Source of the DNA: a virus
IMG/VR virus record: IMGVR_UViG_3300045988_135716
Coordinates: 64,001 to 128,000 of that record
Reading direction: 5' to 3' (one strand)
Length of the DNA: 64,000 nt
The position numbers and the translations under genes were made by a program. Below, in pieces: positions 144 through 33,891 of the stretch. Numbering within the stretch: the stretch's first letter is position 1; each line of letters starts with the position of its first letter. The notes under the pieces are model-generated. The model ran no database searches. It was not told the origin of the DNA and was given only the letters and a program-made list of their open reading frames with translations.

Positions 144-474
144 TACAATGCTGAAATCAAACTTTCATGGAGATGATGAAATGCTAGAAAAATTAATTAC
201 TGACAATAAAGAAAACTTTAAAGGTTATTATGTATTTGCAATCTGTATGTGGAAAGATAAATTATGCTTAGTGCCATGTGATGATGCAATGTCTGGGTAT
301 TATCCTGTATATGATAAAGCAATTAATATATCCGATATGCCAATCGTGAATTTTCCAAATAAAATCAATGGACAAAATATTGATGCAATAATTTTAAAAT
401 TATATAAAGGATCTATAGAATTTGATTTTGCAGAAGATACATGGGATGGATTTCAGCCATTAGGAGATTTATAG
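136..474 (+). CDS. hypothetical protein
   Basis: 112-codon ORF with TTG at 136 and first ATG at 148; start uncertain; tiles with neighbours. Confidence 0.6.
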   Translation: MSDTMLKSNFHGDDEMLEKLITDNKENFKGYYVFAICMWKDKLCLVPCDDAMSGYYPVYDKAINISDMPIVNFPNKINGQNIDAIILKLYKGSIEFDFAEDTWDGFQPLGDL

Positions 475-512
475 TAACTATGAAATCCAGCTTTCAAAGA
501 AAGGATTATTTT

Positions 513-1058
513 ATGAAGTATACAAAGTTTAGTGATATACCACAGTTTACAAGAGATGCAAGTTATCACGTTAATATGGATATTCGTAGAGTATCTATAT
601 GGATTGAAGAAAACATTAAAGAATATAATTTGCAACTTAATCCAGACTTCCAGAGAGGACATGTGTGGACAGAAGAACAACAGATTGCATGGTTGGAGTT
701 CTTTCTCAAAGGTGGTAAATCTGGTAATGATGTCTATTTTAATGATCCATTTTGGATGGACTGGAACATGAATAACACAAAACCGGATATATATAAAGAT
801 TTTGTTTGTGTAGATGGTTTACAGAGATTAACTTCCATTCAGAGATTTATAAATAATGAGATTAAAGTGTTTAATTCTTATTATAGAGAATATGAAGATC
901 CAAGGCATCTGAATACAAATACATTAATCATTCATGTAAATAATCTGAAAACAGAGAAAGAAGTATTGCAATGGTATATTGACATGAATGCAGGTGGAAC
1001 ACCACATGCAAAAGAAGAGATTGAACGTGTCAAGGAACTTATTGATAATTTGGAATGA
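513..1058 (+). CDS. DUF262 / ParB-like nuclease-domain protein
   Basis: FQRGHVW and VDGLQRLTSI (DGQQR-type) motifs typical of the DUF262 (GmrSD N-terminal) domain. The ORF opens at 441, but ATG 513 has an AAAGGA SD 7 nt upstream. Confidence 0.7.
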   Translation: MKYTKFSDIPQFTRDASYHVNMDIRRVSIWIEENIKEYNLQLNPDFQRGHVWTEEQQIAWLEFFLKGGKSGNDVYFNDPFWMDWNMNNTKPDIYKDFVCVDGLQRLTSIQRFINNEIKVFNSYYREYEDPRHLNTNTLIIHVNNLKTEKEVLQWYIDMNAGGTPHAKEEIERVKELIDNLE

Positions 1059-1110
1059 TTAGATGAAAAGTTGTTTTTTAAATTTTATGTTGCGTATGTA
1101 TGGGCGATGA

Positions 1111-1512
1111 TTATTTATCATCGTCCTTCTTGTTTGAGTTTAATACATCTAACATTATATTATAGAATATTTGATTTATATTTGGCGTTGCTTTGTCTAT
1201 TGCCTTTTTGAGTTCATTATTAGAGTCAGATACATAAGCGTCAGTATTATTTTTATTATTTTTCTGATTTTGTGAATGATAAACCCTAATTATATTCTTT
1301 TTCTTTTGCGGTTGCTTAGTTGAAATTAATAAATCATTTGGGGTACAATTAAATAATTCGCACATTTTTTCAAGTGTATCAAATGCGATTTTTGTAGTTT
1401 CGCCATTGTAGATTTTACAAGCTGCTTGGTATCCTATTCCAAGTGCGACAGCAAATTGATTAATGTTTTTATAATTCTCATCTACATACCTTTTAACCTC
1501 AAGTTTCATCAT
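1111..1512 (-). CDS. XRE/Cro-CI family helix-turn-helix transcriptional regulator
   Basis: N-terminal HTH_3-like segment (INQFAVALGIGYQAACKIYNGETTKIAFDTLEKMCELFNCTPNDLL). One of only two convincing minus-strand genes; divergent from a consensus promoter carrying operator repeats. Confidence 0.8.
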   Translation of the reverse strand: MMKLEVKRYVDENYKNINQFAVALGIGYQAACKIYNGETTKIAFDTLEKMCELFNCTPNDLLISTKQPQKKKNIIRVYHSQNQKNNKNNTDAYVSDSNNELKKAIDKATPNINQIFYNIMLDVLNSNKKDDDK

Positions 1513-1572
1513 AATACATCCCTCCGTATATAAATTGTATTATAGCATAGAACTTGAGATAAATAAATTGAT

Positions 1573-1628
1573 TTTTAGATTAAATCTTTAGATTATATCT
1601 TGACATCTAATCTAAAGAGTAATATAAT
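1573..1628 (+). promoter_or_regulatory. Consensus sigma-A type promoter with three operator-like 10-mers
   Basis: TTGACA 1600-1605, a 17-nt spacer, then TATAAT 1623-1628. The 10-mer (T/C)TTTAGATTA occurs at 1573-1582 and 1586-1595, and inverted (TAATCTAAAG) at 1608-1617 inside the spacer. Confidence 0.75.
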
Positions 1629-1665
1629 AGGCTCATAAGATAAAGAAAGGAGCTACACACACGAT

Positions 1666-2055
1666 ATGATGGAGTTTAATATATTTGATATTCTTTATGT
1701 CAAAACAAATGTTAATACATCAGCTAAATCACACGTTCAGCAGATCGAAAGACCTGTTGTTGTAATCCAGAATGATTCTGGAAATAAGTTTGCTCCTACT
1801 TTGATTGTCATGTGCTTAACCAGTAAAATCAAAAAGGTTGAGCAGCCCACTCACGAAGTAATTAAAGCTAGTAAATCTAATGGTTTAAAATGTGACTCAA
1901 TGGTTTTAGGAGAACAGATTTTTACTATTGATAAGCGTGATGTAGTTGAAAAATGGGGAAACATTGACAATGAAGAGGATAGACTTTTAGTAGAAAAATG
2001 TTTTCTTGCAAACTTATATGGTAAAAAGAAAATCAGAGTGGAGGAATTAGCATGA
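1666..2055 (+). CDS. mazF: MazF/PemK (EndoA-like) endoribonuclease toxin homologue
   Basis: ERPVVVIQNDSGNKFAPTLIVMCLTS..QPTHEVI..GLKCDSMVLGEQIFTIDK closely parallels B. subtilis EndoA/NdoA (RPVLVIQND.GN.FSPT.IVA.IT..LPTHVEI..DSVILLEQIRTIDK), recalled from memory. Confidence 0.85.
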   Translation: MMEFNIFDILYVKTNVNTSAKSHVQQIERPVVVIQNDSGNKFAPTLIVMCLTSKIKKVEQPTHEVIKASKSNGLKCDSMVLGEQIFTIDKRDVVEKWGNIDNEEDRLLVEKCFLANLYGKKKIRVEELA

Positions 2056-2330
2056 GTGGAAGAATTGTGTCCGTAGATGAAGCTATAAGATTGTTAACTG
2101 AGTATAAGAAAAACGGTGGAGAGAATGTGTTATTTTCCTCATTTGATTTAGATACAAGATCACCTGATTGTGAAGCAATTCCAATTAGTATTACTTGTGG
2201 AATTAAAGCAATTACAACAGGTCTTCCGATAACATATAATAGAAACTTTATAATGTCCACATTAAAAACACAAGATAAAAACAAAGAGAAGACGATATTA
2301 TTTGCTGAGAAGGGACATATGAAAATATAA
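2052..2330 (+). CDS. hypothetical protein, translationally coupled to the MazF-like gene (possible cognate antitoxin)
   Basis: ATGA start/stop overlap with the preceding gene; 92 aa with no recognisable motif. Confidence 0.55.
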   Translation: MSGRIVSVDEAIRLLTEYKKNGGENVLFSSFDLDTRSPDCEAIPISITCGIKAITTGLPITYNRNFIMSTLKTQDKNKEKTILFAEKGHMKI

Positions 2331-2365
2331 AATCGAAAAAATACAAACAAATGTTCTGGAAAGTA

Positions 2366-2394
2366 TTGACACAAACAAATGTTTGGTATATGAT
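2366..2394 (+). promoter_or_regulatory. Putative sigma-A type promoter
   Basis: TTGACA 2366-2371, a 17-nt spacer, then TATGAT 2389-2394, in a 310-nt non-coding gap. Confidence 0.5.
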
Positions 2395-2424
2395 ATGAAC
2401 ATCTTCACAAGATAATAAAAAAGT

Positions 2425-2470
2425 AAGGATCTTATCTCGGTGCGGGAACACCATATGAGATAAGAACCTT
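2425..2470 (+). ncRNA. Long imperfect hairpin, candidate small structured RNA
   Basis: AAGGATCTTATCTC (2425-2438) pairs with GAGATAAGAACCTT (2457-2470) with one mismatch. An inner GGTG/CACC helix is also present. Sits about 30 nt downstream of the putative promoter. Confidence 0.3.
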
Positions 2471-2615
2471 ACAAACAACACATATAACAGAGATTGGTAC
2501 AACCTCTTGCTATACATTTTTAGTTTAAGTCTTTTTAGTTTAAAAGTCAAGATAAAAGTCTAGCAATTCTGCGATTGTTCCAATTAATTACAACTAAATA
2601 TAGGAAATATTACAA

Positions 2616-2633
2616 ATGAAAGTCGGCTTTCAT
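2616..2633 (+). repeat. Dispersed palindrome family member (ATGAAAG-TCGG-CTTTCAT)
   Basis: Perfect TGAAAG-N4-CTTTCA palindrome followed by CGTAG; see the motif-family finding. Confidence 0.6.
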
Positions 2634-2641
2634 CGTAGTTT

Positions 2642-3592
2642 TTGTACGCATTTTTTGGAAGGGGGTCTGATTATATAAATAATTATGTAGATTGTGGTTC
2701 TTATTATATTGGGACTACTAAAACAGGATTAAAATTTTATTTTGATAAGAAATATTATAATATAGTATCTTTATATCATTGGAAAATGAATAGTGATCAT
2801 ATTCCAGTAACATGCGTTGATAATAAATATGTTTCAATTAAGAAAATATTATTTGGAAATATATCATTAAAACATATTAACGGGAATAAATCGGACATAA
2901 GAGAAGAAAATTTAATACCAACAAGAGGATTAAATCATGATGGTAAAACTTTTTTGAATGGTTATATTTCTATCTACATGCCAGAACATAAACGAGCATT
3001 TGATAATGGGTGTGTATATGAACATGTGTTAGTTGCAGAAAAAATGTTAAATAGAGAATTAAAAGAAACAGAATGCGTACATCATATAAATCATATTAGA
3101 ACAGATAATCGTCCAGAAAATTTGATGGTATTTCGTACAAACAAAGACCATATTTTGTTTCATGCAGGAAATTATGCAATTTTATTGGATGATGGCTCGT
3201 ATGTCGTTGATGATAAAAAGATAGAATATTTATATAAATATAATAATAGAACTGCGGAAGAAATTAAAAATAACGTTGAGGATAAAGGTTCAGTTACAGT
3301 AATTACATATAAAAGACAGATAGGAAAAGATTTATGTCCAGTCTGTTTAAAACATATGAAATCAATAAAAGCAAAAATGTGTAAAGAATGTTGGGACAAA
3401 GAAAAAAGTACAAATATACCTACAAAGGAAGAACTTGAAAAATATATTTATGATTTTTCATTTGAAAAAATCGGAAAAATGTATGGTGTAACAGGTAAGA
3501 ATATAACGAAATGGTGTAAAAAATATAATTTACCATATAGAAAAAAGGATATGGATAAAAATGAAAGGGGCGATGTAAATTGGATTGCTTAA
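2642..3592 (+). CDS. HNH homing-type endonuclease with C-terminal HTH
   Basis: HNH_3-like ECVHHINHIRTDNRPENLMVFRTNKDHILFH and C-terminal IGKMYGVTGKNITKWCKKYNLP. Start is uncertain (TTG 2642, or ATA 2675 downstream of a GGAAGGGGG SD). Confidence 0.8.
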   Translation: MYAFFGRGSDYINNYVDCGSYYIGTTKTGLKFYFDKKYYNIVSLYHWKMNSDHIPVTCVDNKYVSIKKILFGNISLKHINGNKSDIREENLIPTRGLNHDGKTFLNGYISIYMPEHKRAFDNGCVYEHVLVAEKMLNRELKETECVHHINHIRTDNRPENLMVFRTNKDHILFHAGNYAILLDDGSYVVDDKKIEYLYKYNNRTAEEIKNNVEDKGSVTVITYKRQIGKDLCPVCLKHMKSIKAKMCKECWDKEKSTNIPTKEELEKYIYDFSFEKIGKMYGVTGKNITKWCKKYNLPYRKKDMDKNERGDVNWIA

Positions 3593-4311
3593 TTACAAAC
3601 GGCAAGCAATATATCCGTTTAGATTCAAATGGTAGTCCTCAAACATGCGGTCAGGTACTTGCAGAAAGATTTTCAGAAGATAAAGCAAAAAACATTATCA
3701 AGAATCTTCCTAAACCATTGAGAAAATTTCACTTTAATGTTCAGCTAGTCTCTGAAATCGCTGCTCAACCTAAATCAATTGAAGAAGAAAAACTACCAGA
3801 AGATATTAACGGTATCTTAGCGGAACTTGACGATTACTATGAAGATTATCAGCGAAATTCAAAGTATGATAATCCTTATACATATCATGGAGAAACTGCT
3901 TTAGAGAAAGAACTTTCTATGAATGATATAGGAATCGGCAATTTCTTTAAGATGGTAATTGATTGTGTTTCTGATAGAGAGAAATACATTGAGAATATGG
4001 AATATCTTATTAAAGAATATGATCTGAAAATTCTTGACGTAAGACATTTTATCCGAGATGAAGAAACAAAATTGGGAACAGTGCCAATGAGTAGAATCAG
4101 TTACTTATTACAATATTATGAACGTCAACGTGCTATATGCAAGAGAAATAGAAATTGTGCAAAACTTTTCCAATATCATGTAGAGAGATTTAAAAACAGG
4201 AAATACATGAAAGTGATTGATAGGATTACAAATTCTAAATATAAATACAGACGTTTATCTAAAGAATATCTCGAAGATTATGCAAAAGGTATAACGAAAG
4301 AGAGAAAATAA
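3580..4311 (+). CDS. hypothetical protein
   Basis: 243-codon ORF with TTG start 9 nt after AAAGGGG; no recognisable motif. Confidence 0.6.
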   Translation: MDCLITNGKQYIRLDSNGSPQTCGQVLAERFSEDKAKNIIKNLPKPLRKFHFNVQLVSEIAAQPKSIEEEKLPEDINGILAELDDYYEDYQRNSKYDNPYTYHGETALEKELSMNDIGIGNFFKMVIDCVSDREKYIENMEYLIKEYDLKILDVRHFIRDEETKLGTVPMSRISYLLQYYERQRAICKRNRNCAKLFQYHVERFKNRKYMKVIDRITNSKYKYRRLSKEYLEDYAKGITKERK

Positions 4312-4345
4312 TTATTACATAGTTACATATCAACAGAGAGGATCG

Positions 4346-6610
4346 GTGATACGAATGCACTACAAAGACATTCTGGAATCTTATTACAAAGTTAATGAGA
4401 ACAATCCAGAAAACTCAGCAAAGAAATTACATAATGTTGTAGATAAAATTCTAAAACAGTTTGGTGGTATCACCGATATTGACAGGGATGAATGTTATTC
4501 TATAGCAAATTTAGAGATTACAAAATATATCAAAAGTCAATTAGATAAAGGAATTGAAGATTTTGATGAAGATAAATTCAATGGATTTATATATTTTGCA
4601 ATTTCCAGAAAAGTTAAGATGCATATTACAAGAAAAAACAGACAAAAGCGTTGTAAAATCGTAACAAAGATAGAAGATGGAAAGGAAATTAAGGAATATA
4701 TTTATCCAACATCATTAGATAATCTCATGTCTGACGATGGAAAAACAAAGATGATTGATATAATTCCTTCTGATTTTGATATAGAAAGCAGTATTGATGC
4801 AGGAGAACTATTAAATCTTGGAGAAAATGTAGTCAAATATATTGCTTCTCTTGGGTGTATAGAGCGCAAAATTGCAGATTTAATAATGCAAGGATGTAAT
4901 TCTACGGAGATCAAAAGCATATTAAAGCTTTCGGACAAAGAATATAATACATATCTTTCGGATATGAAAGAATATGAAAAAAGAAAACTTCTAAAGATGG
5001 AAGAATGTGAAAATGCAAATATTGAGGAGGAATTACCAATGGAAACAAAAACAACAACATCAGAAAGAACAAAATCTACCAGTTATTCAATAGAATCTCT
5101 TAGCAAACAGTTGAGACAGCACAGATTAAGAGACAACCATCCATTACAAAGAACTTCTGGACAATGGAGTCTACTTACAAAAAGCGAATTAATTTCTGAT
5201 ATTTTACAAGGTAATTCACTTTTACAGATTGTAATTTCAGAAGAAATTAAAGCCGGAATTATAATGCATTGGTTAATTGATGGAAAGCAGCGTTCTACAA
5301 ATTTAAAAGATTATCTTGAAGATGGATTTGCAATTTCCAAAAATGTACAGAGATATATGATTGAATATCAGAGCGACAAAACAGATGAAGATGGGAATGT
5401 AATTTTAAATGAAGATGGGTTTCCAATGCCAGAAAGTAAAGTATTTGATATTCGTGGAAAAAAATTTTCTCAATTGCCAGAAGAATTACAAGACAAATTT
5501 AAAGATTATCAAGTTCCTGTAATGCTCAATTTGAATTGTACAAAGAAAGATATTGCTTATGATATTGCACGATTCAACAGATGTAGACCAATGAATGTTT
5601 CTCAGTCAGGATGGCTAGGATTAGAAGAATCCTATGCTGAATATGTAGATAAGATTTTAAAGATGGATTTCTTTAAGGTTGATTGTGATAAGTCAAGTTA
5701 TTCAAATACGAATATTAAGAACGGATCACTTAGAAGAATTATTATTGAAGCAATAATGACATCTAAATATCTTAGTCATTTTGATAAAGACTTTGGTAAA
5801 ATGTGTGCTTACTTAACTGAAAATGCAAATGAATCAGTATTTATTGATTTTTATTTGACATTGGAGAAGTTATCTAATGTGTTAAGAGGTAATACATCAG
5901 ATATTTTTAATAACAAAAATTCATTTTTATGGTTTGCTTTATTTGATAAATTTTTAGAATATAACATTGAAGATGATAAATTTAATGGATTTATTCAGGA
6001 ATTTAAAGAGACATTACATAATAAAGAAATTGATGGTATTACATACGATTGCTTAAACGGTCAGAAAGGGACAAAGGATCGTTCTTCCGTAACAAAAAGA
6101 TTCAATCATTTGCTTACTCTGATGAAAGAATACTTACATATCGAAGATTCTGTTGAGGAAATCACAGAAGAACCAGAAACCATTGAAAATGATTTGTTTG
6201 ATACAGAAACAATTGAAGAATCATCTGAGAAACCTGCTATCGCAGAAGTAACAGAGTATTCAGCAATTGGAAATGTGGAAATTGAACACGTTGAAGGAGA
6301 AGTAGTAGATAACGATACATTAGATTTTGTGAAAGAATGTGTTGATAAGAACGTAACAGACATTGATGTTTCTTATTATGAAGACGACTTAAATACCATT
6401 ACAAAAGATGTACAGTCTAAGTTACTTGATGATGTAAACAGAAAATCTTTAATTGCAGTTATCGCATATGCGTATATGCAGGATGAAAATTACGAAGAAT
6501 GGTTTGAGAATTATTTTAAAAGAGTTGATACATATGATATTGATCAAAAAAAGAACTATCTCAATATGAGAAACGATTTGATTACTTTTAATAAAGGAGC
6601 AGTTGCATAA
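4346..6610 (+). CDS. Large fusion protein: sigma-70 region-4-like HTH N-terminal part, central DUF262/ParB-like nuclease domain, acidic C-terminal part
   Basis: IERKIADLIMQGCNSTEIKSILKLSDKEY resembles a sigma region 4 / LuxR-type HTH. PLQRTSGQWS...WLIDGKQRSTNL matches the DUF262 DGQQR motif. The start could instead be ATG 4355. Confidence 0.65.
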   Translation: MIRMHYKDILESYYKVNENNPENSAKKLHNVVDKILKQFGGITDIDRDECYSIANLEITKYIKSQLDKGIEDFDEDKFNGFIYFAISRKVKMHITRKNRQKRCKIVTKIEDGKEIKEYIYPTSLDNLMSDDGKTKMIDIIPSDFDIESSIDAGELLNLGENVVKYIASLGCIERKIADLIMQGCNSTEIKSILKLSDKEYNTYLSDMKEYEKRKLLKMEECENANIEEELPMETKTTTSERTKSTSYSIESLSKQLRQHRLRDNHPLQRTSGQWSLLTKSELISDILQGNSLLQIVISEEIKAGIIMHWLIDGKQRSTNLKDYLEDGFAISKNVQRYMIEYQSDKTDEDGNVILNEDGFPMPESKVFDIRGKKFSQLPEELQDKFKDYQVPVMLNLNCTKKDIAYDIARFNRCRPMNVSQSGWLGLEESYAEYVDKILKMDFFKVDCDKSSYSNTNIKNGSLRRIIIEAIMTSKYLSHFDKDFGKMCAYLTENANESVFIDFYLTLEKLSNVLRGNTSDIFNNKNSFLWFALFDKFLEYNIEDDKFNGFIQEFKETLHNKEIDGITYDCLNGQKGTKDRSSVTKRFNHLLTLMKEYLHIEDSVEEITEEPETIENDLFDTETIEESSEKPAIAEVTEYSAIGNVEIEHVEGEVVDNDTLDFVKECVDKNVTDIDVSYYEDDLNTITKDVQSKLLDDVNRKSLIAVIAYAYMQDENYEEWFENYFKRVDTYDIDQKKNYLNMRNDLITFNKGAVA

Positions 6611-7056
6611 TGAAAGATACAGTAAATGAAGTAAAGAAAAACTTATCAGAACTCGATTATCTTCTTGGAGAAAATAATGTTGAAGATATTAAGAAACGTA
6701 TTGGAGATTTGATTGTGGACAGAATAGCATCAGATTTACGTGCATATGACTATTATCTGTTTTATCCAGAAGATTATACCGAAACAATCAATAGTGCATT
6801 TGAGAAAATAGAGAAGAAAATAACAAAAATGTATTCCGATGCGTTATTGGAAACGGCAACAGAATCAGTTACACGATTTAAAGATATTGCATTATCACAT
6901 ATAAACGAAACACAGGGGCTACAATTGAGGTCGTGTCATAAATGTGAACATTGTAATTTTAATAGATGTAAATTCTATGAAGATTACTATTGGAAAGCAC
7001 ATGACGGAATTTGTGCAGAAGAAGGATTTATCAATTTTAAAGAGAAAGTAGATTAA
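6610..7056 (+). CDS. hypothetical protein with C-terminal Cys/His cluster
   Basis: TAATG overlap with the upstream gene; AAAGGAG SD; CHKCEHCNFNRCKF cluster. Confidence 0.65.
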   Translation: MKDTVNEVKKNLSELDYLLGENNVEDIKKRIGDLIVDRIASDLRAYDYYLFYPEDYTETINSAFEKIEKKITKMYSDALLETATESVTRFKDIALSHINETQGLQLRSCHKCEHCNFNRCKFYEDYYWKAHDGICAEEGFINFKEKVD

Positions 7057-7071
7057 TAAGGGAGATTACAT

Positions 7072-7659
7072 ATGAACATGAGACTTTCAGAAATTAAAAT
7101 TTCTGCGGATTTTGAAAGCAGTATTCCAAATACATATAAATATAATAAATGTGAAAATTACTATAACAAAACAGGAAATCAGGATAGGTACATAGTAGTA
7201 GATGAGAAGAATGTTTTAGTAGATGGTTATATAATGTATTTAGTATTGAAAAATCATGATGTGGAATATGGTAATGTAAAACGTTTGACATTAAGAAAAC
7301 ATACTTATACTGATAAGCAACGTAAAAAGTATGGACGATTGATTTCACCTAAACACGTTGTTACATACAAGGAAAAACCAACTGCTTATGTATACGGAAA
7401 ACATCCTAATAGTAAAGACAATAAAGAATACGTTTGGAGATTACCGCAAGCATGGGGATATATGAGTCTTATGTTACAAAAAGGTGATGTAATCTATTGT
7501 GGTACAAGATTTGGAGTTGCACCTGTTGTTGTAACTAAAGTGGAATTAAAATCTAATTTTGATACCAGTTTATGTATTAAAAAAGTATGCTCACAGAAGA
7601 TTTATAGGAATGGAGAATTATTAAAATATGATAGTAAGGATGGATCAACTAATGTGTAA
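7072..7659 (+). CDS. hypothetical protein (weak ParB N-terminal-like resemblance)
   Basis: GGGAG SD. The segment YIVVDEKNVLVDGYIMYLVLKNH is reminiscent of the ParB/Srx fold 'DGyhR' region, but the motif is incomplete. Confidence 0.6.
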   Translation: MNMRLSEIKISADFESSIPNTYKYNKCENYYNKTGNQDRYIVVDEKNVLVDGYIMYLVLKNHDVEYGNVKRLTLRKHTYTDKQRKKYGRLISPKHVVTYKEKPTAYVYGKHPNSKDNKEYVWRLPQAWGYMSLMLQKGDVIYCGTRFGVAPVVVTKVELKSNFDTSLCIKKVCSQKIYRNGELLKYDSKDGSTNV

Positions 7660-7819
7660 TCATAACTGGGTATTAATCGAAAAGCCACGACATTTAAAGT
7701 ATAATTATAGTGGGTTAGAAGTTGTGATTGGTAAATGTCGATGCACGAAATGTAAGAAGATAAAGGATAGAAAGATGATTGGTCACCAGATTGGAAATAT
7801 ATTTGAGGAGACAGGATAA
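7652..7819 (+). CDS. small zinc-ribbon-like protein
   Basis: CNHNW...CRCTKCKK Cys pairs. The ORF opens at 7628, but ATG 7652 follows an AAGGATGGA SD. Confidence 0.5.
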   Translation: MCNHNWVLIEKPRHLKYNYSGLEVVIGKCRCTKCKKIKDRKMIGHQIGNIFEETG

Positions 7820-7838
7820 AAGCGTGGTTTCATTGCCA

Positions 7839-8010
7839 GTTTTTAGAAGAGCTTAAATTTATAGAGTTCTAAAACTAATGAGGTACATTGGTTAAGTGTA
7901 GTGCACACGTTTTAGAAGAGTGTAAATTTATAGGGTTCTAAAGCTCCTTGCCCGTCATGCCGATAGCACAGCCAGTTTTAGAAGAGTGTAAATTTATAAG
8001 GTTCTAAAGC
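7839..8010 (+). CRISPR. Mini-CRISPR array: 3 repeats (36-37 nt) and 2 spacers (33 and 30 nt)
   Basis: R1 is 7839-7875 GTTTTTAGAAGAGCTTAAATTTATAGAGTTCTAAAAC. R2 is 7909-7944 GTTTTAGAAGAGTGTAAATTTATAGGGTTCTAAAGC. R3 is 7975-8010 GTTTTAGAAGAGTGTAAATTTATAAGGTTCTAAAGC. Unique spacers lie at 7876-7908 and 7945-7974. Repeat termini are type II-like (GTTTTAGA...CTAAAAC). Confidence 0.8.
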
Positions 8011-8288
8011 CTCAAATTTACAAGAACCTTATAAATTATGAAATGTACGTATGTACATACGTTGTCAACTAAAAATAGAATAAGTGATACATAAGTTGAA
8101 CTACATTATTATAAGAGAATATGTTATTGTGTCGCTCTAGCAATAATTATATCGTGAAAAGCTAAACATCCATTACATAATTCTGTAAAACACTCTTAAT
8201 GGAAGTGCTTGAACATCAAAGACTTATAATAATATTTTCGAAGAGCATTACCAGTTTTATACTGAGATTATATTTAAGGACAAAGAAA
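8011..8288 (+). ncRNA. Putative tracrRNA / omega-RNA-like scaffold fused to the last CRISPR repeat
   Basis: Anti-repeat AGAACCTTATAAATT (8023-8037) is the exact reverse complement of repeat bases 7991-8005. A 16-nt perfect palindrome ACGTATGTACATACGT lies at 8047-8062. The 278-nt non-coding stretch runs up to the IscB-like start, as omega-RNAs do. Boundaries are not determined. Confidence 0.5.
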
Positions 8289-9842
8289 ATGAATTACTTA
8301 GATTTTGCATTTGTAATAGATAAAAATAATAATCCTTGTATGCCTATTTATGAAGGATATGCAGGTAAATTATTGAGAAGTAAAAAAGCAGTTATTGTAA
8401 ATCATGATCCATTAGTTGTACAAAGACACGATGAATATAATGCAGATTTAGAGTTTAGAGATAGAATTACATTAAAAGTAGATACTGGATATGAAAATAT
8501 AGGATTTTCAGTCAGTGATAGTAAACATGAATATTTATCAGGTCAAGTTAAATTGCTTAATGGAATATCTAAGAGGTTATTGGCTAGAAAAGAACATAGA
8601 GGTTGTCGTAGACAAAGATTAAGATATAGAAAAAACAAAGCCATAGACTATAAAACAGTTAATAATCCAACATATAAAAATGGGAATCAAGATGGTTGGT
8701 TAGCACCTTCAATTTTACATAGAATTAATTCGCATTTGAGATTAGTTGATAAAATTGCTTCTTGGATTCCAATTGATAAAGTGATTATTGAAACTGCGAA
8801 CTTTGATATACAGAAAATAAAAGCTATATTAAACGACAAAGAAATTGAAGGAGTCGAATATCAGTTAGGAGAAATGTATGGATTTGAAAATGTTAAACAG
8901 TATGTAAGAGAACGAGACAATTATACTTGTCAAATATGCGAAGCTGGACAAGATAAAGATAAGAAAAATGTTCCTATAGAAGTACATCATATTATTCCAC
9001 GTTCAAAAGGAGGTTCTAATAAGCCAGATAATTTAATTTCGTTATGTAAAACCTGTCATAAAAAAGTTCATATGAATAATAATGACAATGATTTATTTAG
9101 AAAATTGCAACATGATGGAGTGAAAAATACATACAAAGATGCTTCATTTATGAACATCATGAGATGGACGCTATATAATCAGTTAAAAGAAAAATATGAC
9201 GTATCTATATCATATGGTTATATAACAAAATTAAATAGACGAATGGCAAATCTGAAAAAGTACCATTATATTGATGCGTTGTGCATTTCAGATTATCATG
9301 AAATTACACTTACTAAAAATATTTATTTAGTTGAACAAAAACGATGTAATGATAGATGTATGGAATCGTTTTTTGATGCCAAATATATTGATAGTAGAGA
9401 TAATAAAATAAAGGAAGGAACTGAATTATGTAAAGTCAGAAAATCATATGCATCGAGAAGATCTACAAGAAAAGAAGATATTGAAAACAATCGTATTTTT
9501 AGAAAAGAAAAAGTTGAAAAAGGAAGAAGACAATATAGATGTCATTCATATTGTTTAAAAGCAGGAGATTTAGTATATATAAATTATGGAAAACATAAAG
9601 GCAAAATAGCAGAATTTTCAACAATGAAAAAAACTCCAACTGGTTCATATCAAATAAAATTTATTTATGATGGACAAGAATGTAAATGTCCATCAATATC
9701 TATCAAACCAGAAGAGTATATTCAATTAACAACAAATCAATGTGACAAAGTAAAAATTGTACGTACTCGTAGAGGTATGATTTGGCGAAAAACTGATAGA
9801 TTAGAATATGAGTCAAACACACCTGAACAGTATAGACCTTAA
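8289..9842 (+). CDS. iscB: IscB-like RNA-guided nuclease (PLMP, split RuvC, Arg-rich bridge helix, HNH); compact Cas9-like effector
   Basis: Motifs occur in IscB/Cas9 order: NNPCMPI (PLMP), KVDTGYENIGFSV (RuvC-I), RGCRRQRLRYRKNK (RRXRR bridge helix), VIIETANFD (RuvC-II), CQIC..HHIIPRSKGGSNKPDNLISLCKTCHKKVH (HNH), HYIDALC (RuvC-III). ATG 8289 has an AGGA SD 8 nt upstream. The in-frame extension back to 8199 is probably non-coding. Confidence 0.8.
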   Translation: MNYLDFAFVIDKNNNPCMPIYEGYAGKLLRSKKAVIVNHDPLVVQRHDEYNADLEFRDRITLKVDTGYENIGFSVSDSKHEYLSGQVKLLNGISKRLLARKEHRGCRRQRLRYRKNKAIDYKTVNNPTYKNGNQDGWLAPSILHRINSHLRLVDKIASWIPIDKVIIETANFDIQKIKAILNDKEIEGVEYQLGEMYGFENVKQYVRERDNYTCQICEAGQDKDKKNVPIEVHHIIPRSKGGSNKPDNLISLCKTCHKKVHMNNNDNDLFRKLQHDGVKNTYKDASFMNIMRWTLYNQLKEKYDVSISYGYITKLNRRMANLKKYHYIDALCISDYHEITLTKNIYLVEQKRCNDRCMESFFDAKYIDSRDNKIKEGTELCKVRKSYASRRSTRKEDIENNRIFRKEKVEKGRRQYRCHSYCLKAGDLVYINYGKHKGKIAEFSTMKKTPTGSYQIKFIYDGQECKCPSISIKPEEYIQLTTNQCDKVKIVRTRRGMIWRKTDRLEYESNTPEQYRP

Positions 9843-9919
9843 TACATATCATATCTAAAACATTCTTATAAAAGATCCCAATTTTATCATAATTGAATAT
9901 ATAGAAAGAGGTGATAACC

Positions 9920-10066
9920 ATGATCCTAGTAATGCGAATAATCCTTGTACCATTATGTATCGCAAATGCGATTGTTCAGAAACGAAACACACAAAAAGTC
10001 CTCTGGTCTTGCATGGCATTATGTTGGCTTGGATTGTGTGTAGATGAAATTATGAAAATTTGGTAA
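9920..10066 (+). CDS. small hydrophobic protein (48 aa)
   Basis: AGAGGTGA SD; MILVMRIILVPLCIANAIV... membrane-like sequence; below the ORF-track size cut-off. Confidence 0.5.
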   Translation: MILVMRIILVPLCIANAIVQKRNTQKVLWSCMALCWLGLCVDEIMKIW

Positions 10067-10080
10067 AGAAAAGGAGAAAA

Positions 10081-10482
10081 ATGAGAGACAGAAGTGAATT
10101 TGGAAGAATGTATGGAATTATTTTCACCAATGATGATTATGTTGGTATGAAAAAGCTTGATGAAATTTTAAGAGAAAAGTTGGCACAAGGAATTAAGTGT
10201 GTAAGACATGACCGACTTGGATATTATTGTAATTACATTATGAAATTTTCGGATGATGATGTATGGAGAATTATTTCACCACATGACAAATCTGTGAGGT
10301 GCTTAAAATGGAATTTAGCATATATAGACGCTTATAATACTACTTTGGATGATTACATGAATATTATTATTCCTTCTGGTGATACAACAATGGTTGAAGA
10401 ACCAAAATATTTTAATTGGGATAATGAATATTTTAAAGATTTAGTTATTGGCAAACGGCAAGAATTTAAGTGGATAGAATAA
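10081..10482 (+). CDS. hypothetical protein
   Basis: The ORF opens at 10060 (TTG), but ATG 10081 follows an AAAAGGAG SD. Confidence 0.65.
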   Translation: MRDRSEFGRMYGIIFTNDDYVGMKKLDEILREKLAQGIKCVRHDRLGYYCNYIMKFSDDDVWRIISPHDKSVRCLKWNLAYIDAYNTTLDDYMNIIIPSGDTTMVEEPKYFNWDNEYFKDLVIGKRQEFKWIE

Positions 10483-10516
10483 TACGATGAAATGTGAGTT
10501 TTAGGAGTAATTAAGA

Positions 10517-17000: not shown

Positions 17001-17984
17001 TTGAGTCATTTAGTTGAAAATAATAATTCATCTGAGAATGGATTAAGAGTATTAAGTCTATTCGATGGTATATCTTGTGGCAGAATTGCATTGGATAGAG
17101 CTGGATTTAAGGTTAAAGATTATTACGCTTATGAGATTGAACAGAATGCAATCAAGATAAGCAGATATAATTATCCGTCCATTTATCAATGTGGTGATGT
17201 TTTTGATGAAGATTTTAGTAAATATGATGGTATTGATTTGTTAATTGGTGGCAGTCCCTGTACTGAATTTTCAGTAGCAAAGTGTTCTAAAACTGCAAAA
17301 CATAAAAGAGAAGTCGTGCCTGGTGGAGATGGTTGGAAATTGTTTATGCAATATGTAAGAGCGTTACATGAATCGAAACCAAAATATTTTCTATATGAGA
17401 ACAATTATGGCATTGCAGATTCTATACGTGATGCTATCACAAAAGAACTTGGTGTTGAACATGTGCTTTTAGACAGCCAATTAGTTTCAGCTCAAAGACG
17501 TAAGAGATTATATTGGACGAATATTCCAATAAAAGGAGAACCAGAAGATAGAGGAATTTTAGTAAAGGATGTGATTGTAAATGATTCTGAACTAATTAAG
17601 CAGTTTGATGATCGTATTAGAAACACATTAGTCAAATGTGAGAATTACATAAAATATGATTTAAGTGGCAAAGGACATTTTTCTCAGCAAGATAGGATGT
17701 ATTTTCTTAATAATAAAGCACCAACAGTTCCAAGATGTAGAACTGAAACTAAATTTAATGTTTGGTTAGGTGGAGAAACATATAAGAAAACTTGTCCTGT
17801 TGAGATAGAAAGACTTCAAACATTACCAGATGGATATACGGAGTTTGGGTTGAATGAAGATGGAAGCATTGTGAAAATGCCGAAAACAAGAAGATTTGAA
17901 GCTATTGGTAACGGTTGGACTGTTGACATTATAGCTTGGATATTTAGTTTTATGAAGGAGAAACAAGATGCAAATAACAGCTAA
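17001..17984 (+). CDS. DNA (cytosine-5)-methyltransferase
   Basis: Motif I LSLFDGISCG, motif IV GGSPCTEFS, motif VI-like LYENN, QRRKR, motif X IGNGWTV. The TTG start is poorly spaced from the SD, so the start is uncertain. Confidence 0.85.
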   Translation: MSHLVENNNSSENGLRVLSLFDGISCGRIALDRAGFKVKDYYAYEIEQNAIKISRYNYPSIYQCGDVFDEDFSKYDGIDLLIGGSPCTEFSVAKCSKTAKHKREVVPGGDGWKLFMQYVRALHESKPKYFLYENNYGIADSIRDAITKELGVEHVLLDSQLVSAQRRKRLYWTNIPIKGEPEDRGILVKDVIVNDSELIKQFDDRIRNTLVKCENYIKYDLSGKGHFSQQDRMYFLNNKAPTVPRCRTETKFNVWLGGETYKKTCPVEIERLQTLPDGYTEFGLNEDGSIVKMPKTRRFEAIGNGWTVDIIAWIFSFMKEKQDANNS

Positions 17985-18834
17985 AAGCTATTTTAGTGGA
18001 GCAGGAGGAATGGATTTAGGAATAGAGGAATCTGGAATTAACATAATTGAATCGTATGAGATAGATAAAAAGTGTTGCGACACTTTGAGAAAGAATTTCA
18101 AACATCATGTAAATGAGTCAGATATTACACAGATTACAGTTCTCGATCAGAATGATGCGGATGTTTATATTGGTACATTTCCATGTACACGATATTCAAC
18201 CATTGCTGATATTTCAGGTATAAGAACAGGTGATGATTTATTTTTACATTTCTTTAGGCATATTGCTTTAGCACAACCAGAAATGTATGTAGTAGAAAAC
18301 GTTCCTGGAATGCTTAAATTCAAAGTAGTTATGGAAGCATTGACAAAATTACCTGATTATTACGTGAGAGTTGAATGTCCTATTAACGCAAATATGTGGT
18401 TGCCACAAGAAAGAAAACGATTGATTCTAATTGGAAGTAAGAAACCATTTACCAATTTTGATTATCCTGATTCTCAACCATTAAAACTGAAAGATATTAT
18501 CGAAAATGATGCTTCGATTGATATTCCACAATATGTATATAATCGCATTAATGGAAAATATAGAGATAAACCAATTGTTTCAGATCCAGATAATGATGAT
18601 CTTGCTCCAACATGTGTAGCGCATTACGCAAAAGATAAAGGAACAAGATTAATCAAAGATGGAAAGAGAATTAGACCATATACAGTAAGGGAATATGCTA
18701 GACTGCAAGGTTTTCCAGATTGGTTTGAGTTCTGTGGAACAGATAATGATGCTTATAGACAGATTGGTAATGCTGTTGCTGTTCCAATGGGACGTTGGAT
18801 TGGCAAACAGATTGTAAAATATTTTAATTCATAA
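17968..18834 (+). CDS. DNA (cytosine-5)-methyltransferase (second copy, divergent)
   Basis: Motif I YFSGAGGMDLG, motif IV GTFPCTRYS, motif VI VVENVPG, QERKR, motif X IGNAVAVPM; AAGGAG SD. Confidence 0.85.
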   Translation: MQITAKSYFSGAGGMDLGIEESGINIIESYEIDKKCCDTLRKNFKHHVNESDITQITVLDQNDADVYIGTFPCTRYSTIADISGIRTGDDLFLHFFRHIALAQPEMYVVENVPGMLKFKVVMEALTKLPDYYVRVECPINANMWLPQERKRLILIGSKKPFTNFDYPDSQPLKLKDIIENDASIDIPQYVYNRINGKYRDKPIVSDPDNDDLAPTCVAHYAKDKGTRLIKDGKRIRPYTVREYARLQGFPDWFEFCGTDNDAYRQIGNAVAVPMGRWIGKQIVKYFNS

Positions 18835-22116: not shown

Positions 22117-23480
22117 ATGAACTACGAAGATTTTCTAAAACAAAAGGATTATGTTCTGGAAAGTAGTGGATTTAATATTGATAAAGATAAATTAAATCCC
22201 ATGCTATTTGACTTTCAGAAAGACGTAGTAAGATGGGCATTAGCAAAAGGTAGAGCTTGTATTTTTGCAGAGTGTGGGCTTGGTAAAACGCCAATGCAAT
22301 TATCATGGGCGCATCAAGTACATCTACATACGGGCGGTAAAGTTTTAATTCTTGCACCTCTATCGGTTGCGGATCAGACAAAGAGAGAATCTGAAAAATT
22401 CCATTACAATGCAAAAGTATGTGAGAAACAGGAAGATTGTATTGATGGAATCAACATTACAAACTATGAGAAATTAGACAAATTCGTAGCAAATGAATTT
22501 GTTGGAGTAGTCTTAGACGAGAGTTCAATTCTTAAATCCTACACTGGTAAAGTGAGGACTTCTATTATCGAGAATTTCCAAAATGTTCCCTATAAATTAG
22601 CTTGTACTGCGAACCTGCCCCAAATGATTATATGGAGTTGGGAAATCATTCGGAATTTTGTGGAGTTATGACACGTTCAGAGATGTTATCAATGTTCTTT
22701 GTTCATGATGGTGGTCAAACATCTAAGTGGAGATTAAAAGGTCATGCAAAAGATGTATTTTGGCAATGGATGGCAAGTTGGTCTGTATTTATTGATAATC
22801 CATCAAATTTAGGATATGACGGTACAGATTATGAATTACCTAATTTGAATATTCATGAAATTATAGTTGATGGAGATGAACCAATCACTGAATCACTCAC
22901 ATTAACAGAGCGTAGAAATGCAAGAAAAGATACTCTTGAATTAAGATGTCAAAAAGCAGCAGATTTAGTAAATAATTCAGATGAACAATGGTTAGTCTGG
23001 TGTGATCTTAATGCAGAAGGCGATAGATTGAATGAACTGATTGAAGAAAGTAAAAACGTTCAAGGAAGTGATAAGAATAAATACAAGAGTGAAACAATGC
23101 TATCATTTTCTGATGAAAAATTAAAATGTCTTATCAGCAAGCCACAGCTCGCAGGATATGGCATGAATTGGCAGAATTGCCACAATGTTATTTTTACTGG
23201 ACTTTCTGATAGTTTTGAGCAATATTATCAGGCTGTAAGAAGATGTTGGCGTTTTGGTCAGACAAAAGAAGTCAATGTATACATAATCATTTCAGCAAAA
23301 GAAGGTTGTGTAAAAGAGAATATTGAAAGAAAGCAATTAGATTTCATTACTATGAGAGATGCAATGATTAATCTGACTAAAGAAATTACTAAGAAAGAGC
23401 TTAAATCAACGTGTAGGCTTACTACACCATATGAAGCAAATACAACAATGAAATTACCAAATTGGGAGGAATTCAAATAA
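22117..23480 (+). CDS. SNF2/DEAD-like superfamily 2 helicase, reading frame broken by an apparent -1 frameshift near 22612-22616
   Basis: Motif I ECGLGKTPMQ, motif II VVLDESS, motif III region LACTA|N|PAPNDYMELGN split between track ORFs 22117-22671 and 22602-23480. C-terminal motifs GYGMNWQ and AVRRCWRFGQ are present. Confidence 0.75.
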
Positions 23481-24388
23481 TGATGAACGTAATTGATCAA
23501 GCAGTAGCAAATAGATATGCACTTTATCATGGAGACAGTGTAGAAATTACTAAGGAGATTCCAGATAATAGCATTCACTACACTATCTTTTCACCACCAT
23601 TTTCACAGTTATATGTGTACTCTAATTCAGATAGAGATATGGGTAATTGTAAAGGTGATGAAGAATTCTATAATCATTTCAAATATCTTGCAAAAGAATT
23701 ATATAGAATTACAATGCCTGGACGACTTCTGAGTTTTCATTGTATGGATTTACCTCTTATGAAATCAAGAGATGGTGTAATTGGATTAAAAGATTTTCCT
23801 GCGCTCATGCTTAAAATCTTTCAGGATTGTGGATTTATCTATCATAGTAAAGTAACTATTTGGAAGAATCCTGTTACAGAAATGCAAAGAACAAAAGCAC
23901 TTGGGCTTTTACATAAACAGATTAAGAAAGATAGTAGTATGAGTCGTCAAGGACTTCCAGATTATGTGATCACGGTTAGGAAGCCTGGTGATAATCCAGA
24001 ACGAGTTGAACACACAAATGAATCATTTCCTGTTAATGTATGGCAAAATTACGCTTCACCTGTATGGATGGACATTAGGCAGAGTGATACATTACAGAGA
24101 AAATCAGCAAGATCTGAACAGGATGAGAAACATATTTGTCCATTACAGCTTGAAGTAATTCAGAGATGTATTGAATTATGGACGAATCCAAACGATATTG
24201 TGTTTGATCCGTTTGGTGGAATTGGTTCTACTCCATATGTTGCACTTAAATTAGGAAGAAGAGGAATTGCAAGTGAATTAAAAGATAGTTATTTTGAGCA
24301 GTTGAAGAAAAATGTAGAGTCTGTGGCTGCCGAAGAACCAGAATTATTTCCAGTTGGAGAAAAGAGTATTGAGGATGTAGTCGCATAA
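23480..24388 (+). CDS. N4-cytosine / N6-adenine DNA methyltransferase (beta class, N6_N4_Mtase-like)
   Basis: Catalytic SPPF (IFSPPFSQ) lies N-terminal to the SAM-binding DPFGGIGST. TAATG overlap with the helicase; GGGAGGA SD. Confidence 0.8.
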   Translation: MMNVIDQAVANRYALYHGDSVEITKEIPDNSIHYTIFSPPFSQLYVYSNSDRDMGNCKGDEEFYNHFKYLAKELYRITMPGRLLSFHCMDLPLMKSRDGVIGLKDFPALMLKIFQDCGFIYHSKVTIWKNPVTEMQRTKALGLLHKQIKKDSSMSRQGLPDYVITVRKPGDNPERVEHTNESFPVNVWQNYASPVWMDIRQSDTLQRKSARSEQDEKHICPLQLEVIQRCIELWTNPNDIVFDPFGGIGSTPYVALKLGRRGIASELKDSYFEQLKKNVESVAAEEPELFPVGEKSIEDVVA

Positions 24389-33033: not shown

Positions 33034-33891
33034 ATGCCAACAAGAGATGATCTAGGAACTAGAATGAAAACTTTTTATGAGGAAATTCCAAAAACAAAAC
33101 TTATGCGTCGCTGTCCAGTTACTATTAGAATTGATGGAAAAGCATTCCATACATTTACAAGAGGATTTCAAAAACCATTTGATGAAGTTTTAATTGAAGC
33201 TATGCAGAAAACAATGAAATATCTTTGTGAAAATATCCAAGGATGTGTATTGGGATATACTCAGTCTGATGAGATTACATTGATTCTGGTTGACTATAAG
33301 AAATTAAATTCTTCTGCATGGTTTGATTATGAAGTTCAGAAAATGTGCAGTATCGCAGCGAGTATGGCTACAATGGCGTTTAATAGATTTTTCATGTATG
33401 AATATGAAGAGTTTAATAGATGGGTTAATGAAGGAAATCCAACAGATGAAGATAGACGATTAAATGATATTTATTATGATGCGATGTGTAAAGGTGCAAT
33501 GTTTGATGCACGTTGTTTCAATATTCCAAAAGAAGAAGTAACAAATCTTATCTACTGGCGACAATTAGACGCTTCTCGTAATTCAATTCAGATGGTAGGT
33601 CAAGCCAATTTCTCTCATAAAGAACTACAAAATAAATCATGTAATCAAATTCAGGATATGTTAATGGAGCAAAAAGGTATCAATTGGAATGATTTACCGA
33701 CATATCAGAAAAGAGGGGCTTGTTGTATTAAAAATAGCCATATAGTTAGATGTTCATCAGATGGAACAGAACTTTGTATAATTAAAGATCCTGGAAAACC
33801 CACAAATGAATGGATTATTGATAAAAATATTCCTATTTTTAAAGGATGTAAGAGGGAATATATTGATAAGTTAATTAATGTAGGAGAATGA
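33034..33891 (+). CDS. Thg1-like protein (tRNA-His guanylyltransferase family, 3'-5' nucleotidyltransferase)
   Basis: The N-terminal half matches Thg1/TLP hallmarks: ..RMKTFYE...CPVTIRIDGKAFHTFTRGFQKPFDEVLIEAM...GYTQSDEITLIL, including the catalytic D of RIDG and the SDE carboxylates. Confidence 0.75.
   Translation: MPTRDDLGTRMKTFYEEIPKTKLMRRCPVTIRIDGKAFHTFTRGFQKPFDEVLIEAMQKTMKYLCENIQGCVLGYTQSDEITLILVDYKKLNSSAWFDYEVQKMCSIAASMATMAFNRFFMYEYEEFNRWVNEGNPTDEDRRLNDIYYDAMCKGAMFDARCFNIPKEEVTNLIYWRQLDASRNSIQMVGQANFSHKELQNKSCNQIQDMLMEQKGINWNDLPTYQKRGACCIKNSHIVRCSSDGTELCIIKDPGKPTNEWIIDKNIPIFKGCKREYIDKLINVGE

Follow-up and report, generated by a model that had tools for sequence, protein, structure and literature searches.

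CRISPR-associated IscB nucleases were first reported in 2021 (Altae-Tran et al.; 31 loci), according to papers citing that work, including PMC12660989. They are the only natural systems between the one-guide transposon nucleases of the OMEGA type (obligate mobile element-guided activity) and Cas9. In DelIscB, the non-coding RNA (ncRNA) comprises spacers, repeats and an anti-repeat hairpin (PMC12660989). Expression of the ncRNA, its binding by IscB and guided cleavage dependent on a target-adjacent motif were shown for DelIscB (PMC12660989) and, as the citing literature relates, for the 2021 system. For the DelIscB authors, whether and how the array-containing RNA becomes CRISPR RNA (crRNA)-like and trans-activating crRNA (tracrRNA)-like parts is still an open question (PMC12660989). 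We looked at a locus with the same repeat/anti-repeat hairpin in a 64-kb window of gut phage DNA, the window being the whole stretch of 64,000 nucleotides that was analysed (positions 64,001 to 128,000 of the IMG/VR record IMGVR_UViG_3300045988_135716). We consider, with a probability of about 80%, that positions 7834-9842 of this window represent a compact phage-borne CRISPR-associated IscB cassette, predicted to encode an array-fused native single-guide RNA. The architecture has been known since 2021 and the locus is a phage-borne representative of it; in the open-access literature that we searched, no text was found on IscB-CRISPR cassettes on phages. The value of the locus lies in the comparative series to which it belongs, and in a possible array growth at an inverted leader, rather than in the architecture as such.

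The predicted IscB cassette and the described systems

The original prediction, made from the letters of the window, had claimed that a terminal CRISPR repeat is joined to its own anti-repeat in cis as a natural single-guide, omega-RNA-like architecture beside a nuclease gene. This core claim was supported at the sequence and comparative level. A repeat finder, together with a reading of 7400-8700, gave three direct repeats of 36 nt. The array of three repeats and two spacers (7840-8010) lies directly upstream of a scaffold and of iscB on the same strand, and the scaffold holds a complementary, co-varying anti-repeat. These elements are as follows.

7834-9842, + strand: self-contained cassette of mini-array, predicted omega-RNA scaffold and iscB; missing from the syntenic phage MT835469.1
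7840-7875, + strand: repeat 1, farthest from iscB and degenerate (86% identity to the reference repeat)
7876-7908, + strand: spacer 1, 33 nt, with no match in the phage collection or IMG/VR
7909-7944, + strand: repeat 2, from the repeat finder
7945-7974, + strand: spacer 2, 30 nt, guide of the putative native single-guide RNA
7975-8010, + strand: repeat 3, the terminal repeat, whose 3' half (7991-8005) is the 5' arm of a guide-adaptor-like hairpin
8011-8017, + strand: CTCAAAT, directly 3' of the terminal repeat; its reverse complement is ATTTGAG, the motif that anchors type II-A leaders
8023-8037, + strand: anti-repeat, the 3' arm of the hairpin and exact reverse complement of 7991-8005
8289-9842, + strand: iscB, 517 aa, with an NPCMPI (PLMP-like) N-terminus, split RuvC, Arg-rich bridge helix and HNH, plus ~180 aa of C-terminal sequence

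The open reading frame (ORF) of the nuclease was listed as 8199-9842, and its start was reset to ATG 8289 on the basis of its homologues (513-520 aa, beginning with MNY or MEY) and of a Shine-Dalgarno sequence, AAGGA, at 8276-8280. Pfam returned RRXRR (2.7e-37, 128.7 bits) and HNH (6e-13), and the NCBIfam equivalog guided_IscB ('RNA-guided endonuclease IscB') scored 295.7 bits against a cutoff of 175 (3.5e-88). TbaIscB, OgeuIscB and other IscBs were the best-matching relatives in PDB, at 1e-29 to 1e-31, and Cas9 chains were matched at E = 8e-9 to 0.045 through the HNH region only. All the marks of an IscB protein were present, that is PLMP/RRXRR, a split RuvC with an inserted HNH, a bridge helix, a size in the range of ~400-550 aa and no recognition (REC) lobe. 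The NPCMPI motif and residues D65, E168, H233/H234, N248, H257, H326 and D329 were invariant in 23 homologues of the clade. ORF 8289-9842 is, as predicted from its sequence, an IscB with intact catalytic residues. By sequence the leader also has the marks of an omega-RNA, with a structured scaffold directly upstream of iscB on the same strand and a guide at the 5' end. Residence in an IS200/IS605 element was not found, as no Y1 transposase lies beside the cassette or among the 21 ORFs of at least 230 aa, and the cassette is bounded by the array on one side and the iscB stop codon on the other.

Like the CRISPR-associated IscBs of the 2021 set, as presented in the citing papers, and like DelIscB, the locus has iscB after an ncRNA with spacers, repeats, an anti-repeat hairpin and an omega-like scaffold, and it shares with them the place between OMEGA and Cas9 that those papers give to these systems. 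The likeness is by description only, and there are differences: the protein has 517 aa compared with 457 aa for DelIscB, the loci described here lie on large gut or rumen phage genomes, and, unlike both the 2021 systems and DelIscB, the repeats are type II-A-like with an inverted leader-anchor-like motif.

The classical IscBs of IS200/IS605 elements (OgeuIscB; Clostridioides L084) belong to the same protein family and have their omega-RNA at the same position upstream of the ORF. In the classical element, the single guide derives from the transposon flank, the guide adaptor hairpin is internal and TnpA lies close by, as it does in L084, the nearest non-CRISPR relative. The scaffold described here is homologous to the L084 omega-RNA from CTACGTTAT onward, with shared motifs, pseudoknot and terminal hairpin. 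Between guide and core, L084 has an ordinary hairpin, CACTACCC-TAAA-GGGTAGTAG, whereas the phage clade has the repeat 3' half, a loop and the anti-repeat. Contrary to the classical IscBs, the hairpin is made of CRISPR repeat and anti-repeat, an array supplies the guides, and TnpA was found neither near the cassette nor among the window's large ORFs. The pseudoknot has its counterpart in the 'nexus pseudoknot' of four base pairs in the OgeuIscB omega-RNA (PMC9640706). Kato et al. equated the guide adaptor hairpin with the Cas9 repeat:anti-repeat duplex (PMC9640706), and Hirano et al. proposed the guide adaptor region as what became the CRISPR array. In the phage clade, the position of the guide adaptor hairpin, which comes first among the structural elements of a classical omega-RNA, is, by this comparison, filled by the 3' half of the last repeat and a co-evolving anti-repeat in cis.

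Type II-A crRNA:tracrRNA pairs resemble the locus in their 36-nt GTTTT...AAAAC repeats, ~30-nt spacers, spacer-then-repeat polarity and duplex beside the guide. Unlike type II-A systems, the locus lacks both Cas9 and a REC lobe, none of cas1, cas2 and csn2 turned up in the 64-kb window, and the anti-repeat pairs with the repeat 3' half, lies covalently downstream of the array and leads into a ~250-nt scaffold with a pseudoknot. The locus does not qualify as type II CRISPR-Cas either, with an effector of 517 aa that best fits the IscB model and no Cas1 found close to the cassette or among the large ORFs that the window encodes.

Virus-borne mini-arrays depend on host effectors. The array described here resembles them in being short, viral and devoid of adaptation genes, with spacers matching related viruses. 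It differs in that the phage brings a minimal effector and a scaffold, whereas virus-borne mini-arrays are not presented with a nuclease of their own in the parts consulted of the papers that review them (PMC11656645) and model them (PMC7099407) in virus-virus conflict.

Repeat/anti-repeat covariation and the omega-RNA scaffold

The arms of the inverted repeat (7991-8005 and 8023-8037) were found where the original prediction had placed them, with 15 nt each, 100% complementarity (15/15) and 17 nt between. The hairpin (7975-8045) has an energy of -15.3 kcal/mol (z = -3.8), and none of 200 shuffled sequences was equally stable; a 15-nt inverted arm with a loop of at most 60 nt occurred once in 100 mononucleotide shuffles of 7000-9000. 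By itself the hairpin is suggestive and not conclusive, and the decisive evidence is the co-variation of repeat and anti-repeat over 14 subfamilies.

A protein search gave ~40 close relatives (45-93% identity, 513-579 aa) before dropping to ~40% identity for ordinary 450-aa IscBs. By exact protein look-up, more than 50 loci were gathered (14 from IMG/VR, 34 from metagenomes and several further contigs, cited below by L numbers), with an IscB identity of 45-97% and many of them on viral contigs of 80-216 kb. They fall into 14 repeat subfamilies that differ at many positions. We parsed the upstream 1.1 kb and observed that every non-truncated locus has the same layout: array, terminal repeat, short linker, anti-repeat, scaffold, Shine-Dalgarno sequence and iscB, with 36-nt repeats, 29-31-nt spacers and a scaffold of 230-290 nt. 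The related loci contain 2-8 repeats, except for L022 and L025 with a single one.

For each combination of repeat and scaffold from the 14 subfamilies, the best duplex was calculated that the 3' part of the repeat can form with the region following it. Cognate pairs had a mean of -16.6 kcal/mol and non-cognate pairs of -7.1 kcal/mol (permutation p = 5e-5, the floor of the test), and the cognate repeat ranked first for 11 of the 14 scaffolds. Consistently, the repeat/anti-repeat helix in alignment A2 (columns 17-30/82-94) has 13 pairs, nine of which changed on both sides, with 79.8% of cells paired. The compensatory changes that the original prediction had asked for in homologous loci are therefore present, and this co-variation indicates that the pairing is under selection. 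The one-guide omega-RNA, imagined at one end of a continuum, was likewise found: in L022 (2717-3003) and L025 (2723-3003) there is one repeat and no spacer, so that the repeat borders on the phage flank, which takes the place of the 'guide' in this classical omega-RNA arrangement. The flank of L022 is that of L003, which has three spacers.

The self-complementarity of the repeat ends, also noticed before, is real and covaries across loci (AG/CT, GG/CC, GT/AC); it is a general property of type II-A repeats, including a bacterial repeat found here. In L042 (2334-2665), the last full repeat is followed by a 30-nt spacer-like segment and then directly by the anti-repeat. Terminal repeat and CTCAAA motif are both missing there, perhaps through a deletion between two similar sequences, the repeat's 5' end and the anti-repeat's start.

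The stretch from repeat 3 to ATG 8289 comprises 278 nt of non-coding sequence, ~250 nt of which are 3' of the anti-repeat. That it is placed as an IscB omega-RNA had been proposed, and we observed a structured, covarying scaffold there. Structure was assessed by RNAalifold and pair counting on a plain MAFFT alignment (A2; 29 distinct sequences) that was not fitted to structure. The following features were obtained.

8040-8062, + strand: lineage-specific insert in the variable linker, containing a palindrome (8047-8062); its columns are gapped in the other 28 aligned sequences
8070-8084, + strand: conserved single-stranded motif TAAAAATAGAATAAG, start of the core scaffold, with nearly invariant columns in A2
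8105-8233, + strand: long-range helix 8105-8115/8223-8233 around the inner hairpins (11 pairs, 6 changed on both sides, 97.8% paired)
8124-8146, + strand: hairpin 8124-8129/8141-8146 with the conserved loop TGTCGCTCTAG (6/6 stem pairs changed on both sides)
8166-8206, + strand: hairpin 8166-8172/8200-8206, from RNAalifold and pair counts, with ACACTCTT (8190-8197) in its loop
8242-8246, + strand: AGAGC, 3' strand of the pseudoknot, within ATTTTCGAAGAGC; TYGAAGAG is conserved across subfamilies of any repeat sequence
8252-8264, + strand: terminal hairpin CAGT-TTTAT-ACTG (8252-8255/8261-8264), just 5' of the Shine-Dalgarno sequence (4 pairs, 3 changed on both sides)

Over the whole scaffold, 88.4% of cells were paired compared with 35-44% when the partners were slid by 1-3 columns, both partners had changed in 33 of 51 pairs, and the covariation score was 0.47, against 0.07-0.14 for slid partners. 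The loop of the hairpin at 8124-8146 is invariant (..CTCTAG..) and provides the 5' strand of the pseudoknot: GCTCT (8134-8138) pairs with AGAGC (8242-8246), the five pairs are kept in 29 of 29 sequences and one of them covaries (AU 19, GC 9, GU 1). The hairpin at 8166-8206 is composite, with additional pairs 8154-8156/8212-8214. A scaffold profile built without the window found 8071-8267 of the window at E = 6e-34 and, by nhmmer at E = 1e-8, the leader of the Clostridioides IS200/IS605 IscB with its adjacent TnpA. The 278-nt leader is, as predicted from these comparisons, an omega-RNA scaffold with a long-range helix, three hairpins and a pseudoknot. The minimum free energy fold of the whole of 7945-8295 was not significant (z = -1.3), and the informative parts are the hairpin and the comparative analysis.

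One contact had not been noticed before: the 5' half of repeat 3, AAGAGTGT (7982-7989), is complementary to the scaffold loop ACACTCTT at 8190-8197. Cognate pairs had -6.7 kcal/mol and non-cognate pairs -5.2 kcal/mol (p = 0.0016), 66% of cells were paired and four pairs changed on both sides; compensatory cases are L002 (AAGAATGT/ACATTCTT), L017, L046 and L041.

Three further elements of the leader had been singled out. The 16-nt palindrome ACGTATGTACATACGT (8047-8062) is present as described, inside the 23-nt insert, but it is lineage-specific, being found only in the window and, as a slightly degenerate copy, in its 97% identical relative L021. ATTTTCGAAGAGC (8234-8246), given as a 12/13 match to the repeat's 5' end, in fact matches repeats 2 and 3 at 10 of 13 positions and repeat 1 at 11 of 13. 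We rejected an origin from the repeat: the segment is the pseudoknot strand and its flank, and TYGAAGAG is kept where the repeats start differently (GTTTTGGATATC, GTTTTGTAACCA and others). Finally, CATTACCAGTTTTA (8246-8259) does resemble CATTGCCAGTTTTTA (7831-7845), as the claim of a leader echo held, but the likeness is due to chance, is absent from other loci and is not conserved as a repeat-related feature. A repeat origin was rejected here as well, since CATTACCAG consists of a conserved GYATTACC and the terminal hairpin, and its look-alike at 7831-7839 includes a CAT that belongs to the flank shared with MT835469, the phage without the cassette.

The proposed single-guide RNA and other readings of the locus

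We propose that a rightward transcript through the array into the scaffold would give a covalent native single-guide RNA, in which the last spacer (7945-7974), more likely its 3' 16-20 nt, would be the guide. IscB loaded with this guide would cut matching DNA beside a 3' target-adjacent motif. The duplex of repeat 2 with the anti-repeat is almost as stable as that of repeat 3 (-18.0 kcal/mol with one G-U pair, compared with -18.3 kcal/mol; -11.4 kcal/mol for repeat 1), so that spacer 1 and repeat 2 could use the same scaffold. Such upstream units might pair with the anti-repeat in trans after processing, or in alternative folds of the same transcript.

The near equality of repeats 2 and 3 is also what a purely dual-RNA system would lead one to expect, where the scaffold would be transcribed alone from the anti-repeat as a tracrRNA-like molecule, crRNAs would pair with it in trans, and the adjacency of the terminal repeat would be a matter of the genome only. 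Arrays of up to eight repeats go in the same direction, as upstream spacers, if used, need pairing in trans or an alternative fold, and Cas9 systems operate in this manner (PMC9640706). Nevertheless, we regard it as improbable. No conserved promoter was visible in the gap of only 11-40 nt that separates the terminal repeat from the anti-repeat, the loci with a single repeat (L022 and L025) are understandable only if guide and scaffold form one covalent RNA, and the DelIscB ncRNA functions as a single guide RNA with its repeat/anti-repeat hairpin cut down to a GAAA loop (PMC12660989). The two models are not exclusive, since they become compatible once the hairpin is cleaved. Alternatively, the array could chiefly serve a type II-A Cas9 of the host, as a supply of crRNA or as a decoy, with the adjacency of iscB being secondary. 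Its 36-nt repeats and 29-31-nt spacers, close to those of the bacterial arrays L072 and L061 and in the same orientation, and the leader-anchor-like motif beside it would suit this role. However, the scaffold anti-repeat follows every change of the repeat in the 14 subfamilies, which is expected only if the IscB RNA uses the repeat, and the array is always joined to scaffold and iscB; we consider this role very unlikely. A terminator or attenuator between array and iscB, or a chance inverted repeat, might come to mind in a region of ~29% G+C where one shuffle in 100 gave a 15-nt inverted repeat. Yet the stem is not followed by a U-tract, the terminator scan called none, and the covariation in more than 25 distinct sequences excludes chance. 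We give this explanation practically no weight and take it as effectively refuted.

Several observations weigh against the cassette with an array-fused single-guide RNA that we favour. None of the 92 spacers of the gathered loci had a perfect protospacer in the phage collection or in IMG/VR, that is, a 30/30 match was absent. In several subfamilies an extra segment of the linker creates the order A-B-A'-B', incompatible with a simple hairpin; an alternative fold, a pseudoknot or the remnant of a repeat might account for it. The pairing of the repeat 5' half with the distal loop is moderately supported, less than the other helices. The Rfam scan of 6500-10500 (E <= 10) gave no omega, HEARO or tracrRNA match, and only chance matches resembling small nucleolar RNAs. 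Finally, the promoter scan was uninformative (34 sites compared with 26 expected) and the terminator scan found none.

The extra linker segment (e.g. ATTCCAAAAC) was observed in L018, L046, L044, L012 and L034, before the anti-repeat, and is complementary to the first 8-13 nt of the repeat.

With more than 50 phage loci, 14 co-varying subfamilies, arrays of 1-8 repeats and a scaffold backed by covariation, the locus set bears on the RNA-processing question raised for DelIscB. It amounts to natural experiments on the structural parts of the repeat, including the forms collapsed to a single repeat. From a practical viewpoint, it offers nucleases of 515-580 aa that may accept arrayed guides.

Spacers, array growth and genomic surroundings

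The best match of spacer 2 was 27/30, with a 23-nt core that is invariant in the Bacteroides phage BU2-1 and five IMG/VR contigs. This 23-nt block, GCCCGTCATGCCGATAGCACAGC (L055:1501-1525 and L056-L060), lies in contigs whose flanks are unrelated and cannot be aligned; it had no Rfam match and, reversed, often stands 10-50 nt upstream of a Shine-Dalgarno sequence and ATG. When the 92 spacers were concatenated and compared with 50,697 phage records, one 25-nt match was obtained, and five IMG/VR scans returned mostly the arrays themselves. Without a 30/30 target no target-adjacent motif could be derived, and both targets and motif are presumptive.

Other spacers could be placed in phage genes. 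Spacer 1 of L009 and L047 (27/30) and, in the opposite sense, spacer 1 of L005 (25/30) match one gene of L006, L029 and L030. The gene (L006:2520-2720, also in L029 and L030) is small and helix-turn-helix-like, and belongs to a different phage with the same IscB type. These matches indicate that the arrays would be aimed at related phages. The twin spacers of L046 match, at 21/30, the start of a gene in another viral contig; they cover its start codon, and a homologue of the gene belongs to a viral contig of 60 kb. In L046/L081:3960-4060 and L015/L083, adjacent spacers are variants of one protospacer (e.g. GATGTACCCGGCAGATGAAGTCCAGATGTT and GATGTACCCAGCAGATGAAGCAGAAATGTT, at the start of a MYPADE.. 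gene), which suggests repeated acquisition against diverging targets. The differences between arrays of near-identical phages and the twin protospacer variants of L046 and L015 show that arrays turn over. Since the spacers that can be placed point at phage genes, some of them in related IscB-carrying phages, competition between phages is favoured. The likely role would be competition between phages infecting the same host and not transposon homing; these phages would then carry a minimal RNA-guided weapon, probably against rival phages.

Homing into an empty site was considered for this window and rejected: TGCCAG, 5-6 nt beside repeat 1, belongs to the cassette, and the seed would mismatch the empty site of MT835469. 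The 12-nt identity between an L002 spacer and the insertion flank of the window was likewise rejected, as the spacer has it at its 5' end, which is the wrong one.

Next to the terminal repeat, the position of CTCAAAT holds this motif or a one-off variant in nearly all loci across L002-L054. In 37 unique loci its first six letters were counted as C 29, T 34, C 37, A 36, A 37 and A 33, although the repeats themselves diverge. ATTTGAG is the conserved end of the type II-A leader, abutting the first repeat as GAG/GTTT (PMC5382924). In the phage loci the motif stands inverted, at the array end nearest iscB, and the upstream array end has no such motif; repeat size and sequence, and spacer size, fit type II-A arrays. 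A scan of GTDB genomes with the repeat pattern gave 17 matches, among which only L072, L061 and L067 are arrays; a 25-nt match in L063, considered as a repeat, proved to be coding sequence. L072, from a Clostridia metagenome-assembled genome (MAG; 312-6959), is a bona fide Cas9-Cas1-Cas2-Csn2 locus with the repeat GTTTGAGAGTAGTGTAATTTTATAGGGGTCTCAAAC, which is oriented like the phage repeats; on the upstream (5') side of the array, the leader meets the repeat with ATTTGGG as its end. In L061, from a Ruminococcus MAG (1-290), the degenerate repeat is at the downstream end. Contrarily, among 25 informative phage arrays, 21 had a first repeat with more degeneration than the last one (mean 3.7 compared with 0.9 mismatches; p = 9e-4). 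Five pairs of related arrays (L011/L012, L036/L037, L039/L053, L009/L047 and L042/L043) share upstream spacers and differ downstream, and three comparisons (L026/L027, L007/L010 and L032/L052) were ambiguous or contrary.

The opposite polarity of the phage arrays, taken together with the motif, points to an entry of spacers at the scaffold end, and as the window has no Cas1, type II-A adaptation proteins of the host would probably insert them. We put forward tentatively, and with more doubt than belief, that the array grows at the scaffold end, where host Cas1-Cas2-Csn2 would insert the newest spacer at the position fused to the omega-RNA and push older ones upstream. There are two reservations: the upstream repeat is not needed to form the guide, which by itself could let it decay, and an inverted array would put the protospacer-adjacent motif selected by Cas9 on the wrong side for IscB. 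Spacer entry at the scaffold end with an inverted leader motif is a side observation that is possibly new, and the locus set hints at spacer gain without cas1-cas2 of the phage. If true, the newest spacer would automatically be the guide of the native single-guide RNA, a living route from the omega-RNA guide slot to the CRISPR array, and the phage effector would parasitise the adaptation machinery of the host.

The repeats of L072 and L061 are very close to those of the rumen-type phage IscBs, making their genomes candidate hosts or repeat donors. The sole spacer match to a cultured phage points to Bacteroides instead.

The limits of the cassette were given by comparison with MT835469.1, a 176-kb phage from human faeces that is syntenic over at least 15 kb and has no array, scaffold or iscB. 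Homology breaks at 7833/7834 (..GTGGTTTCAT|) and resumes, diverged, directly after the iscB stop codon; these sharp breaks indicate a discrete cassette of ~2 kb. The iscB of L016 (93% identical protein) occupies the same site, upstream of the ADP-ribosylglycohydrolase gene that MT835469 has there. Downstream of the cassette (9843-10480, compared with L001:6222-7270 and L016:1759-2800), the window lacks this gene of MT835469 and L016, and in its place are two ORFs, a small hydrophobic one (9911-10066) and an uncharacterised one of 133 aa (10081-10482). The site flanking the cassette is a variable hot spot.

The whole window has ~29% G+C, no tRNA genes were found in it, and all its large ORFs are on the + strand. 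They include a replication and modification module with DNA polymerase III alpha, RecJ, a DnaB-like helicase, single-stranded DNA-binding protein, three DNA methyltransferases, Thg1 and adenylosuccinate synthetase. Positions 2642-3592, 17001-18834, 23462-24388 and 33034-33891 encode an HNH_3 endonuclease, two C5 cytosine methyltransferases next to each other, an N6/N4 methyltransferase and the Thg1-like tRNA-His guanylyltransferase.

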